Notes under the pieces: generated by a model
Told to the model about the DNA's origin: nothing
Seen by the model: the letters and a program-made list of their open reading frames with translations, nothing else
Database searches by the model: none
Part shown: positions 20,408 through 24,812 of the stretch, one piece after another
How the letters are laid out: each line of letters starts with the position of its first letter
Numbering within the stretch: the stretch's first letter is position 1
Program-made: the position numbers and the translations under genes
Source: Methanocaldococcus jannaschii DSM 2661
Lineage (GTDB): Archaea; AGJL01; Methanococci; Methanococcales; Methanocaldococcaceae
Assembly (NCBI RefSeq): GCF_000091665.1
Contig: NC_000909.1
Coordinates: forward strand, 291,996 to 323,995
Length of the DNA stretch: 32,000 nucleotides
Direction: 5' to 3'

Positions 20408-20699
20408 CTATGCTAATGCAAAGGCGTTAGTTGAAAAAATACTTGAAGATTTAAAAAACAATGGCATCAAAGTTAAATCTCCTTTATCCAAAATTCAGGA
20501 CTTCCATTGTGAGGCGGATTTCTCAGTAGAGATTGAAAATAGAGTTGCTTATGTAGATGCAACATTTACTTTTGATAAATTACCAAATGAGGATTTAGTA
20601 GAGAAAATTGAAGCAGTTATGACGACATATAACTCTTATTTGGAAAGAATTGACTTTGAAAGCGATTATACTAAGTTAGAGTTTAGGAGCGTGAGATAA
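20376..20699 (+). CDS. Putative head-tail joining protein
   Basis: Small ORF between the connector and tail tube genes. The real start may be the TTG at 20400 (GGTGT upstream), giving an 8-nt overlap with the previous gene. Confidence 0.3.
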
Positions 20700-21403
20700 T
20701 GGTGCTATCACTTACTCCACCAAGCCAAGAAAATATTTTGGCAAGTGGAAAGTTGGCATATTTTGGTGCAAAATCACAGGTTGATACTTTTACAGGAGAT
20801 GAGCAAAATGATACGTTTGAATTAACAAAAGATGATGCGGTTCTCGGTTCGGAGATTGTTAAAGTAAATGGTGTTTTGCAGTTCGAAGGGCAAGATTATA
20901 CAGCAATCCATGAAAATGGAATTTTGAAGAAAATTAAATTCACACAGCCACCAGCAAATGGTGCATCAATTACAGTTGAATATCTCTATTTGGACTTACC
21001 TCTCGGAGGAGCTTCAGAATTATCCGTAAAAGAGGATAAGGATAAAGAAGAGCTGACTGTGGATTGCAGTTATGGGAAGATTCAAATCGAAAAGGGTTCA
21101 AGCATAACATTATCATTCAAAGATATCATCACCGTTGGAGACATTAAGCTTACTGCTTATTTCTCAGGGGAGATTCTTGAAGGCAACACATACTCAAAAT
21201 ACAAAAATGGAGCTTCAAAAAGTGCAAACATTGTTGTTCTTGCATTTTCTAAAGAAGCTACGATGGCTTATGGAGTTGAACCTCCAAAGAGGATTGTTAT
21301 AATAAGGGGAGCGATGCCTAACAATCTGGAGTTTGACTGGAGTGGTGGGAGTAAGTCATTTGATTTGACGGCCCAAAGTTATGAGATTATCGACGTTAAA
21401 TAA
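20699..21403 (+). CDS. Putative major tail (tube) protein
   Basis: 234 aa, immediately upstream of the chaperone-like gene and tape measure, matching the canonical siphovirus order. ATG overlaps the previous stop. Confidence 0.45.
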   Translation: MVLSLTPPSQENILASGKLAYFGAKSQVDTFTGDEQNDTFELTKDDAVLGSEIVKVNGVLQFEGQDYTAIHENGILKKIKFTQPPANGASITVEYLYLDLPLGGASELSVKEDKDKEELTVDCSYGKIQIEKGSSITLSFKDIITVGDIKLTAYFSGEILEGNTYSKYKNGASKSANIVVLAFSKEATMAYGVEPPKRIVIIRGAMPNNLEFDWSGGSKSFDLTAQSYEIIDVK

Positions 21404-21412
21404 GGTGATTAA

Positions 21413-21775
21413 ATGGATAAAAATGAATTTTTAAAAAAATTAGATGAGAAGTTTAAGGAATCAGAACAAAAGAATCTTGAAGCATTAGAAAAAATAAGGT
21501 CTAATCTCCCTCAATTAGAAATTGAGATATTTGGAGAGAAACTCACAGCTATAATTCCACCATTATCAGTTGAAAAAGAAATGATTGAAGATGCAAAGAA
21601 CCTGGAGCCTTTAGATTTTGCATTAAAATACATTCCAATTTTATATGGTATTCCAAAAGAGAAAGTTGAGGAATTACCTTCGATTGTTATTGCAGAACTC
21701 ATCAAAAAGTACTTTGAAGCTTATAAGCAGTTAAACAAGGATAAATCCTTTCGCAATAGAGTGGGCACTAAGTGA
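21413..21775 (+). CDS. Putative tail assembly chaperone (gpG-like)
   Basis: 120-aa acidic helical ORF between the tail tube and tape measure genes. GGTGA-N4-ATG start. It is followed by a start-less overlapping ORF. Confidence 0.45.
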   Translation: MDKNEFLKKLDEKFKESEQKNLEALEKIRSNLPQLEIEIFGEKLTAIIPPLSVEKEMIEDAKNLEPLDFALKYIPILYGIPKEKVEELPSIVIAELIKKYFEAYKQLNKDKSFRNRVGTK

Positions 21776-21923
21776 TGATGCAACAGAGCTTTATTTTGTT
21801 TGTAAATTTTTAAGAATCCCCCCGAGTGAAGCGATAAAGCTAAATAAGATGGATTACAATATAATATTAGGATTTGCAATTAGAGAAATGAAAGATAAGT
21901 TAAAATATGGGGGGATTCTATGA
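21735..21923 (+). CDS. Start-less +1-frame ORF; candidate frameshift extension of the tail chaperone (gpGT-like)
   Basis: 62 sense codons open in the +1 frame relative to 21413-21775, overlapping its last 13 codons. The only in-frame start is the ATG at 21849. Its TGA (21921-21923) overlaps the ATG (21920) of the next gene. Confidence 0.3.
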   Translation, partial: TRINPFAIEWALSDDATELYFVCKFLRIPPSEAIKLNKMDYNIILGFAIREMKDKLKYGGIL

Positions 21924-22291
21924 GATGGCTCACACCATTCGGTATGTTGTTCATAAGTGGAACATACTATGGACTAATATTTTTTGGTTTAATTATGGAG
22001 GTTATTCATAATGCATTGATTAGCTTAGTCTTAGCATTTTTTGTAGTATTCGCATGGGATTTGGTTTTATCCCTAATATATGGTTTAAGATTTGTTAAAG
22101 AGGGGGATTATATAGCTTTGGACTGGGATGGTCAGTTCCCTGACTGCTATGGATTGTTTGCAAGCACGTGCCTTTCAGCAGTGATTTGGACATATACAGA
22201 TTCATTGTTGTTAGGTTTAATTGTCCCAGTCATCATTGTATTCTTAGGAAAGCAATTAATGCGTGGATTGTATGAAAAAATTAAAAGTTGA
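21920..22291 (+). CDS. Polytopic membrane protein inside the tail module
   Basis: 123 aa with about 4 hydrophobic segments. ATGA overlap upstream, and a 20-nt overlap with the tape-measure start downstream. Confidence 0.5.
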   Translation: MRWLTPFGMLFISGTYYGLIFFGLIMEVIHNALISLVLAFFVVFAWDLVLSLIYGLRFVKEGDYIALDWDGQFPDCYGLFASTCLSAVIWTYTDSLLLGLIVPVIIVFLGKQLMRGLYEKIKS

Positions 22292-24812
22292 AGGAACGTT
22301 AGAATTGAACTTGGATGATAAGGATGTAAGGAAAAATCTAAAATCATTAGAAAAAATAAAATCAAAATTAGAGATAGAGAGCAATATCAACGCAGTAATT
22401 AAGCAGTTGGATGAGTTAAAAAATGTCAAATCAGAAGTTGAATTTAAGAGCAATATAAATATGATAATTAGAGAGTTGGAAGAGATAGAGGCAGATGCCT
22501 CAAAAATGAACATAAACTTTGATTATGACTTATCAAAACTAAAAAGTGAATTGGAACAATTGAAAAACACAAAAATAGATATTAAAACAAATACAGACCA
22601 GATATTAAAACAAATCAATAAAATAAAAAGTGAATTATCCGAAAAACAAACAATTAGGGCAAAGGTTGAAGTGGATAGGACAGAATGGGATAAACTAAAG
22701 AAGGAATGGTCTGAAAAATATCACATAAACGCAATTGCAGATGTGGCAAGTGTAGGGACTGCATACATGGGGATTTCCGACGCTGAAAAATACAACGAAC
22801 TAATGACAATTTTAAGAGAAAGGGGCTTAACTAAAGACCAAGCAGAGAGATTAATACAAATCGGCTTATATAACGGCTATTCTTTAGATGAAATTAGAGA
22901 CGGGATTGTATATTCCAATGAGGCGGTTTTAAAGTTGGCAGCATCAAACGATAAATATGCAGCTCAAATATTAGCAGCAATGGCAATGGCTGAAAGAGGA
23001 GGAGAACCTGGAGCTGATGATATAGCAAGGATGATTTCAGCACTAACAGCAATGGGAAAATCAAATGAAGAAATAATGAAAATGGTGAATGCTGAAGTTT
23101 TAGAAATGAAGCAAGGGCATACAGAAGTTGCAGAAGCAATTAGGGAATTCAGCATAACTATGGGAGATACCTTAGACCCTGAGAAATTTGCATCTATATT
23201 AATTCAAGCACAGGCAGCTGGAGCTCAAGATGTTGGACAGTTGGCAGAGGCAATAAATGATTTGGCATTAAACTCAAGACAGATGGGATTTGATGTTGAA
23301 AAAGCATTGAGGGAAATTCAAAAAACAAAAGATGATAAAACATTAGCTGAGTTAGCAAAAAAGTATGGCTTAACTTATGAACAAATAGTTAAAATTCATG
23401 ATTATTTACAGAGAGTGGATTTAGATAAGGGCTTGCCAGACAATACCAACGAATTGGATAGGTTAATAAGCATAAATAAAGACCAAAAGGGTATTTTAGA
23501 AACAATTAAGCAGGATATTGAGGGCTGGTTAGCAGGTCATGGATATTTGCAATATGGGGCAGAGCTTGGAGTAGGTCTTGGAGGTCTTGGAAAAATACTT
23601 GAAATAGCAATTGGTGCAGCAATTGGTTCTGCATTAAAAGATGCTTTTGGTGAAATTAAATCCACATTATTTGGTAAAATTAGTTTGGATAATTTAAAAC
23701 TTCCAGAACTCTCAAAAATCAAATTACCTGTTGATTTAGAAATCCCAAAAATTCCAAAAATTAGCATGCCTAAAATTAAACTTCCAGTTGATTTAAAACT
23801 TCCAAAAATCCCAAAAATCAACATACCAAAAATTAACCTACCAAACGTCTCTGGATTATCTAATGCATTTAAGGGCTTAGGTGAAGCTGTTAGGTTTGCC
23901 GGAAGAGCTTTCGGATTTTTGTCAGTTGTTGTAGAGCCAGTAAAACAACTATTGGAAGGAGATATACAAGGAGCTATAGAGCATTTAAAAGTTGGGCTTA
24001 TTGAATTAGCGGCTTGGCCTGTTGCATTGGGTGAAGCATTAGCAGCTGTTACATTAGCAGTTGGTGATTTCTTAGGATTGTTTGATTTAGATGGGGACTC
24101 ACCATTATCCGCTGCAAGAGCTGGAATTCTAACACTCTTGGCAGCATTTGAATCAATATATAGTTTTATTACTGGTGATTGGAGCGTTGTTCAAAATACA
24201 TTACAAGAGGCATTTGAAGAGTTAGGGATGAAAGAAGATGAAGCCAGACAAGCAGCTGAAAACTTAGCTCAGCAATGGCAACAATTACCTCAGCAAATAT
24301 TAGATGCATTTAATGGTTTTGTTGATAACATTAAACAAACATTTGATGAATGGTGGAATGGATTGAATGAATGGTGGTCTCAAAAAATAGAAGAAGCTAA
24401 GAACTGGGGTAGTGATTTGATTCAAAATATAATTGATGGAATAAAAGAGAAATTTTCAGAGTTGGAGAATGCTGTAAGTCAAGCTGCGGGTATTATCTCC
24501 AGTTACTTACATCACACCACTCCAGATGTAGGGCCATTAAAAGACGACGATAAATGGGGAATCCATTTTATGGAAAACATTATTGGTGGAATTAGAAAAG
24601 AAATTCCTAACTTAAAGAAAACTATTGATTATACTGCTAAACTGATGAGCTCCGCGAATCCTAAAAATTGGAAAATTCAACAAGTAGGAATAACACACAG
24701 CACATCTTACTCTTATGGAGATATACACATAAATGTAGTTGGAAATAGCTTTAATGAGCATCAATTAGCTCAAAAAATTGCTTTGATTTTGAAAAAACAA
24801 AGGTTTAGATGA
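22272..24812 (+). CDS. Tail tape measure protein
   Basis: 846 aa and the largest helical ORF in the tail module. Periodic N-terminal coiled-coil repeats, Ala/Gly-rich hydrophobic stretches in the centre, an internal tandem repeat, and the canonical position after the chaperone gene. Confidence 0.75.
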   Translation: MKKLKVEGTLELNLDDKDVRKNLKSLEKIKSKLEIESNINAVIKQLDELKNVKSEVEFKSNINMIIRELEEIEADASKMNINFDYDLSKLKSELEQLKNTKIDIKTNTDQILKQINKIKSELSEKQTIRAKVEVDRTEWDKLKKEWSEKYHINAIADVASVGTAYMGISDAEKYNELMTILRERGLTKDQAERLIQIGLYNGYSLDEIRDGIVYSNEAVLKLAASNDKYAAQILAAMAMAERGGEPGADDIARMISALTAMGKSNEEIMKMVNAEVLEMKQGHTEVAEAIREFSITMGDTLDPEKFASILIQAQAAGAQDVGQLAEAINDLALNSRQMGFDVEKALREIQKTKDDKTLAELAKKYGLTYEQIVKIHDYLQRVDLDKGLPDNTNELDRLISINKDQKGILETIKQDIEGWLAGHGYLQYGAELGVGLGGLGKILEIAIGAAIGSALKDAFGEIKSTLFGKISLDNLKLPELSKIKLPVDLEIPKIPKISMPKIKLPVDLKLPKIPKINIPKINLPNVSGLSNAFKGLGEAVRFAGRAFGFLSVVVEPVKQLLEGDIQGAIEHLKVGLIELAAWPVALGEALAAVTLAVGDFLGLFDLDGDSPLSAARAGILTLLAAFESIYSFITGDWSVVQNTLQEAFEELGMKEDEARQAAENLAQQWQQLPQQILDAFNGFVDNIKQTFDEWWNGLNEWWSQKIEEAKNWGSDLIQNIIDGIKEKFSELENAVSQAAGIISSYLHHTTPDVGPLKDDDKWGIHFMENIIGGIRKEIPNLKKTIDYTAKLMSSANPKNWKIQQVGITHSTSYSYGDIHINVVGNSFNEHQLAQKIALILKKQRFR
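23715..23846 (+). repeat. In-frame 57-nt (19-aa) tandem repeat, two copies plus a partial third, within the tape measure gene
   Basis: KIKLPVDLEIPKIPKISMP / KIKLPVDLKLPKIPKINIP / KINLPN, read directly from the sequence. Confidence 0.85.

Follow-up and report, generated by a model that had tools for sequence, protein, structure and literature searches.

How is an open reading frame translated that has no start codon of its own and opens inside the gene preceding it? This question is raised by a locus in the archaeal genome of Methanocaldococcus jannaschii DSM 2661 (1.74 Mb, three replicons, 31% G+C), of which we analysed a stretch of 32,000 nucleotides, henceforth called the window. Here, the gene of a putative tail assembly chaperone, G, overlaps an ORF in the +1 frame, T, which runs up to the next gene. 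Our comparison of this arrangement across its relatives argues, with good confidence, that T is translated as an extension of G, in a G-T protein made via a +1 slip of tRNA-Phe at the sequence UCC_UUU_CGC.

The two ORFs lie in a morphogenesis operon on the + strand, which extends from about 18.2 to 30 kb of the window. Directly upstream of G, and adjoining it in every longer contig, is the gene of a structural protein of 234 aa (20699-21403, + strand). G itself (21413-21775, + strand) encodes 120 aa by standard decoding and ends at the TGA 21773-21775. It is overlapped by T (21735-21923), and both ORFs stand 5' of the tail tape measure protein gene (22272-24812, + strand), from which G is separated only by the +1 ORF and an extra small gene for a polytopic membrane protein of 123 aa (21920-22291, + strand). 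The tape measure assignment derives from a match to PHROG 58, 'tail length tape measure protein', with an E-value of 9.6e-18; nine further families were matched as well, eight of them tape-measure PHROGs. The start of this gene at 22272, which implies an overlap of 20 nt with the preceding gene, was adopted from the annotation of a related virus, MFTV1 (see below), and the product from 22263/22272 to 24812 has 849 aa.

The hydrophobic protein gene always stands between T and the tape measure gene, its ATG overlapping the stop codon of T as ATGA (21920-22291 in the window; 3460-3603 in contig L024, 1288-1428 in L025, about 3101-3233 in L026 and 3011-3205 in L039). The called size of its product is 123 aa in the window, L021 and L022, and 46-64 aa in distant contigs from hydrothermal vents and in L023, where it is partial. 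The size thus varies, but the ATGA coupling to T is kept. Ribosomes in the +1 frame would be delivered directly to the hydrophobic gene.

Frame translation places a TAA of the +1 frame at 21732-21734 (+ strand), four codons 5' of the proposed slip codon. The T ORF opens after it, continues for 62 sense codons and ends at TGA 21921-21923, overlapping the downstream ATG at 21920; it shares 38 nt with G. Its first in-frame ATG comes at 21849; neither GTG nor TTG occurs earlier in this frame, and a search for motifs resembling a Shine-Dalgarno sequence (GGTGA, GGAGG and similar) found none in 21690-21930. Numerous stops close the -1 frame. In the extent of the ORF, its contact with the downstream gene, the missing start, the limited -1 frame and the presence of UCC-UUU-CGC (TCC TTT CGC, 21746-21754) within the overlap, the first-pass annotation of this DNA is borne out; the gap between G and the membrane protein gene, given there as 145 bp, measures 144 bp (21776-21919). 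Because of the TAA at 21732-21734, a shift into this frame must take place 3' of that codon. A slip on UUU_C would, according to the fusion translation, join residues 1-113 of G to T, giving a G-T protein of 169 aa. The T extension, as delimited by this translation and by alignment, comprises 56 codons of the +1 frame, from GCA 21753 to TTA 21918-21920, followed by the TGA (21753-21923, + strand). The junction that had been predicted for it, ...DKSF-AIEWALSDD..., is precisely what a slip on UUU_C yields, and the predicted tryptic junction peptide of G-T is SFAIEWALSDDATELYFVCK.

Is this arrangement shared by other elements? Relatives were gathered via genome searches, IMG/VR, a word search of 5.8 billion proteins and phmmer of 1.8 billion representatives; the DNA of all of them was fetched and its three frames were compared. 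Close relatives, in which G is 77-92% identical, are L002 (the MFTV1 provirus), L009, L010, L020/L021 and L023. More distant are hydrothermal-vent contigs with a G identity of 34-44% (L024, L025/L028, L026/L027, L030, L040, L031/L032 and L039) and three species of a second genus of the same order, with 27-35% (L003, L004 and L005). A search of metagenome and genome contigs with the G alignment revealed no relatives, and a T profile, run against all 40 genomes of the class, matched only the five genomes already known. At least nine lineages share the arrangement of a G-like ORF of 116-130 codons followed by a homologous +1 ORF; being related, they are not to be counted as independent events. 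Without exception the T homologue occupies the +1 frame; no lineage has it in the -1 frame or fused to G.

To Methanocaldococcus fervens tailed virus 1 (MFTV1, Fervensviridae), the stretch 20699-24812 shows a nucleotide identity of 87% over 99% of its length, with the same gene order. MFTV1 has been isolated and forms virions, and it shows the same arrangement of G and the +1 ORF. In its GenBank record the T ORF is not annotated, leaving 144 bp empty (4034-4177 in L033; MT711370.1, 11772-11915), and G, the membrane protein and the tape measure protein are named just 'hypothetical protein'. Both this record and the host annotations, which leave the ORF as a 144-bp gap, should carry a joined CDS.

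A gene that is divided between two frames may simply be broken: a formerly continuous G-T gene would have been interrupted by a frameshift mutation as the provirus decayed, and nothing about it would be programmed. The element is indeed an integrated provirus, found in a laboratory strain, and the copies in the second genus lie in remnants of just three genes. However, the same frame arrangement recurs in at least nine lineages including MFTV1, and its presence in a virion-forming virus argues against decay in a dead provirus. A continuous homologue is also missing among 1.8 billion proteins: phmmer of these representatives returned only G-like and T-like pieces, and no G-T fusion in a single frame. 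Lastly, T is under purifying selection, and we therefore consider a broken gene exceedingly unlikely.

The evidence for this selection comes from the substitutions themselves. In our alignments the mean column identity is 61% for T, compared with 52% for G. Between close relatives, changes in the +1 frame fall mostly on third positions, and synonymous changes outnumber non-synonymous ones in five of six pairs (10 to 4, 8 to 3 and 12 to 6, for example), as against 0-3 synonymous and 8-14 non-synonymous changes in the other two frames. Judged by these counts, purifying selection is acting on the +1 frame only; with this and its conservation as protein in at least nine lineages, the arrangement goes beyond chance. 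Between the species of the second genus, G and T each show purifying selection in their own frame as well, with 21 synonymous and 17 non-synonymous changes in G, and 14 and 9 in T.

T could nevertheless be made as a separate protein of about 55-60 aa, from a non-canonical or nearby start or by re-initiation after G, and no frameshift would then be involved. Possible starts do occur near the site in some relatives: an ATG two codons before it in L023 and two to three codons after it in L025, L028 and L039, and a TTG or GTG in L024, L026 and L030. Gene callers have used such nearby starts, and have thereby produced separate proteins of 53-69 aa in some lineages; in those that carry such codons, T may have a start of its own. 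Yet the positions of these codons are inconsistent among lineages, and none of ATG, GTG and TTG precedes the conserved T residues in the window, in L002 and L031 or in any of the three second-genus genomes. A Shine-Dalgarno-like motif is absent, whereas the genes of the element carry strong GGTGA signals, and the ATGs right after the stop codon of G belong to the other frame. Separate translation would also leave unexplained the invariant TCC_TTT_C and the avoidance of AGR and TTR codons described below, and we regard it as unlikely. Of the features named in the first-pass annotation, the overlap, the in-frame UUU before a C and the +1 ORF are all found again in the relatives, but the lack of a start is not universal, some of them having possible starts.

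How readily a separate gene is annotated here is illustrated by L023 (362-375), in which a Lys-to-Asn change in G (AAG to AAT) makes the +1-frame ATG two codons before the site, and this ATG was taken as a start by the gene caller.

Where, then, would ribosomes change frame? In most lineages the +1 frame has a stop 2-5 codons before the TTT, with L020/L021, L026, L040 and the second genus open further upstream, and a zero-frame stop follows 2-8 codons after it (two codons after it in the second genus). Between these stops, most lineages leave only a few codons near the TTT for the shift, and within the permitted stretch the sole motif common to all lineages is TTT followed by C. The sequence is AAA TCC TTT CGC in the window, L002, L020 and L023; CAA TCC TTT CTT in L024 and AAA TCC TTT CTT in L039; AAA TCC TTT CTA in L030 and L040; CAA TCC TTT CTG in L031 and AAA TCC TTT CTG in L003, L004 and L005 of the second genus; AAT TTT CGC in L025 and L028; and AAA TTT CGA in L026. 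An in-frame TTT followed by C is hence found in every lineage, and the longer TCC_TTT_C in seven of the nine.

A codon-level alignment of 11 representatives reveals what has been held constant. Wherever the serine is present (9 of the 11 rows) it is encoded by TCC, which makes up just 6% of the serine codons in the host genome, and wherever the phenylalanine is present (likewise 9 of 11) it is encoded by TTT. The codon that follows is always CGN or CTN, and never AGR or TTR, even though these account for 98% of arginine and 76% of leucine codons, respectively. Elsewhere in the alignment the codons of conserved residues are scrambled: an invariant glycine uses four, a conserved leucine five, and another serine is AGT in six rows and AGC in four, the other conserved residues with four- and six-fold degenerate codons using three to five each. 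The invariance of TCC and TTT against this background argues for selection on the nucleotides, beyond that on the amino acids. Some G genes contain further in-frame copies of TTT_C, so there is no avoidance of the tetranucleotide as such.

What the comparison fixes is the frame and a stretch of few codons, and not the event itself; the +1 frame could in principle be reached by a -2 shift, by a slip at another codon of the overlap or by transcriptional slippage that leaves the mRNA one base short. The overlap, however, has no homopolymer run longer than three bases, which makes slippage of the polymerase unlikely, and no tRNA in the permitted stretch would be able to re-pair two bases back. With TTT_C as the only motif that all lineages have in common there, we hold these other routes to be very unlikely, and favor a slip of a single tRNA on UUU_C, in support of the interpretation given in the first-pass annotation.

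The codons and tRNAs of the host fit such a slip. The zero-frame codon after UUU, which had been expected to be rare, turned out to be the rarest sense codon of the genome, with CGC occurring 0.05 times per 1000 codons in 834 long ORFs. The combination TTT_CGN is found 11 times in 455,000 genome codons, and TCC_TTT_C six times; the provirus has no TTT_CGN other than that of the slip site. CTG, the corresponding codon of the second genus, is the third-rarest there, whereas CTT and CTA, which occupy the A site in four lineages, are not very rare in the genome analysed here, at 8-9 per 1000. The tRNA set of the genome contains one tRNA-Arg (GCG) and a single tRNA-Phe with the anticodon GAA. Re-pairing of tRNA-Phe from UUU to UUC, as originally suggested, would therefore exchange a wobble pair for a Watson-Crick pair in a +1 move. 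The comparative evidence is unusually clear, in that a rare serine codon and the UUU_C are both invariant and the A site holds the rarest codon of the host.

These observations are consistent with the following sequence of events. Most ribosomes translating 21413-21775 would end at the TGA at 21773 and release the 120-aa G. A minority would pause with peptidyl-tRNA-Phe (GAA) on the UUU at 21749-21751, since the A site presents CGC, the rarest codon of the host. The tRNA would then re-pair one base forward on UUC, turning the G-U wobble into a Watson-Crick pair, and decoding would resume in the +1 frame at GCA 21753 and end at the TGA 21921, yielding the 169-aa fusion, in which G and T are joined as ...KDKSF-AIEWAL.... 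As in influenza A PA-X, the signal would include the UCC, placed in the E site. From conservation, codon rarity and the tRNA set, the proposed shift cassette would accordingly span UCC_UUU_CGC at 21746-21754 (+ strand), in the E, P and A sites.

Stimulators of the shift were looked for on both sides of the site. Conserved RNA structure was sought 3' of the site; RNAalifold predicted 0 pairs there, the single-sequence z-score was +0.8, and Rfam gave no matches. An upstream stimulator resembling a Shine-Dalgarno sequence was considered and rejected as a general feature, as it is present in L026 alone. In this lineage, which is without TCC, a GGTGGG lies three bases 5' of TTT_CGA (2909-2930). Its spacing is similar to that of the internal Shine-Dalgarno sequence that stimulates +1 frameshifting in bacterial prfB; alternatively, the same bases could serve a TTG or GTG start.

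What can be said about the proteins themselves? The structure model of G has a pLDDT of 75 and is mostly helical, with one beta-hairpin. Its best matches in BFVD are weak (E 0.009-0.7, TM 0.4-0.5), but several among the top 50 are named tail assembly chaperone, including one from a haloarchaeal virus. Searches for a fold match in the PDB found none for G, and comparisons of G, T or their alignments with PHROG, Pfam and PDB sequences gave nothing useful. A match of G to 'E8' of 8fje looks spurious, consisting of weak overlapping matches of one G segment to repeats of the chain, and was discarded. The position of the gene, the recoding arrangement and the weak fold matches of the model together suggest tentatively that G is a putative tail assembly chaperone. 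For the upstream 234-aa protein the AlphaFold model has a pLDDT of 67, and no convincing match was obtained in PHROG or Pfam. Its N-terminal domain (residues 20-110, approximately) is confidently modelled as a beta-sandwich, with BFVD E-values down to 1.5e-5, that occurs in many phage fibre and structural proteins; the rest is poorly modelled. Judging from its position, it is a possible tail tube or major tail protein.

If the analogy to G and GT of phage lambda holds, G and G-T would chaperone the tape measure protein and recruit the tail tube subunits, and the efficiency of the slip would set the ratio of G to G-T. We infer the slip and its efficiency, and likewise the chaperone function of G and T, the function being drawn from lambda by analogy.

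The second genus presents the locus in a different setting. There, only three genes remain: G, the T ORF, which lies in the +1 frame with TCC_TTT_CTG at its site, and a gene whose low-complexity product has about 245 aa (1441-2758 in L003; 1444-2748 in L004; on the reverse strand in L005; in its context, 9074-10391 of L015). This remnant lies between genes for a reductase and a histone, and neither a tape measure gene nor head genes are found close by. The remnant could reflect recent decay or exaptation.

How does the proposed frameshift relate to known systems? The obvious reference is the G/GT pair of lambda, whose frameshift was described by Levin (1993) and by Xu, Hendrix and Duda (2004), here as reported in the review of Atkins et al. 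(PMC5009743). As in the window, it is located before the tape measure gene, with a short overlap near the 3' end of G and a T that lacks a start of its own, and it yields two products in a fixed ratio, as would be expected in the window. Lambda differs in using a -1 slip of two tRNAs on the heptamer G_GGA_AAG, where the window would use a +1 slip of one tRNA, and there is no sequence similarity between the two. With T in the +1 frame in every lineage and the -1 frame closed, the locus would represent a variant of the G/GT pair, and not one built on the canonical X_XXY_YYZ heptamer.

Shifts in the +1 direction are known from structural genes of Listeria phages. The first-pass annotation mentioned such a shift for phage PSA, and correctly so: PSA, A118 and A500 have a +1 shift in the major tail protein gene (tsh), and PSA has another in the capsid gene (cps) (PMC5009743). 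As proposed for the window, a single P-site tRNA slips beside a slowly decoded codon in a structural gene. The Listeria sites differ in that the slip occurs on CCC, beside either a stop codon or a pseudoknot, and they reside in capsid and tail-shaft genes rather than in a chaperone gene.

Predictions of a +1 shift exist for haloarchaeal myoviruses as well. In 2020, Dyall-Smith et al. (PMC7230728) suggested that ribosomes shift by +1 at a conserved TTT-CGC in the chaperone pair of the HF1 group (HF1, HF2, Serpecor1 and Hardycor2, Hafunaviridae), and for the haloarchaeal myovirus HSTV-2 a +1 shift was called 'very likely' for the G-T protein (Atkins et al., PMC5009743). In HF2 the site reads AAG TTT CGC AGA TAG, with the +1 frame open. 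In the HF1 group, as in the window, the tape measure gene of an archaeal tailed virus is preceded by two chaperone ORFs, and in both the shift is a prediction only. The HF1 group consists of myoviruses of halophiles, and the family of the window of siphovirus-type Fervensviridae of hyperthermophilic methanogens; HF2 has AAG before the UUU where the window has UCC, as in PA-X, and the A-site codon in the family of the window varies between CGN and CUN. Homology between G of HF2 and G of the window family was not detectable (hhalign probability 1%), so that a common origin of the site could not be shown. The kind of site was hence already known from the prediction in haloviruses; what our comparison would add is another virus family and host lineage, and the full PA-X-type UCC_UUU_CGN. 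The family of the window would thereby be the second archaeal virus group with a TTT_C(G/T)N site, unrelated to the first. A 2021 review of archaeal recoding lists as the sole demonstrated case a -1 shift, in fucA1, and calls the haloviral +1 shifts apparent (PMC8211752); Archaea still lack a demonstrated case of programmed +1 frameshifting.

As a sequence, the nine-nucleotide site recurs in eukaryotic systems. For PA-X of influenza A, the minimal +1 cassette has been given as UCC_UUU_CGU (Firth et al., 2012, as related in PMC5009743), in which mutation of the UCC cuts the efficiency by 40-70% (PMC5009743), and a human gene, PLEKHM2, has a +1 shift at UCC_UUU_CGG (PMC11451614). UUU_Ynn is prone to +1 shifts in bacteria, too (PMC5009743). 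With the window, PA-X and PLEKHM2 share the UCC_UUU_CGN, the move of tRNA-Phe from UUU to UUC as proposed here, a rare CGN as A-site codon, a contribution of UCC from the E site and the lack of a conserved downstream structure. They differ in that they operate on eukaryotic ribosomes, in unrelated proteins, and are experimentally proven, whereas in the window the shift is predicted, and would take place on archaeal ribosomes in an organism growing at about 85 C. Whether UCC_UUU_C(G/U)N is a self-sufficient +1 signal on archaeal ribosomes, even at about 85 C, as it is on eukaryotic ones, we judge to be evenly balanced. If it is, the signal common to PA-X, PLEKHM2 and the window would act through conserved features of the ribosome, tRNA-Phe and tRNA-Ser, and not through lineage-specific factors, and with this virus family programmed +1 frameshifting in Archaea would for the first time be open to experiment. 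MFTV1, as an isolated virus, provides a route to an experimental test, and the genetic tools available for hosts of the genera Methanocaldococcus and Methanococcus would open another.
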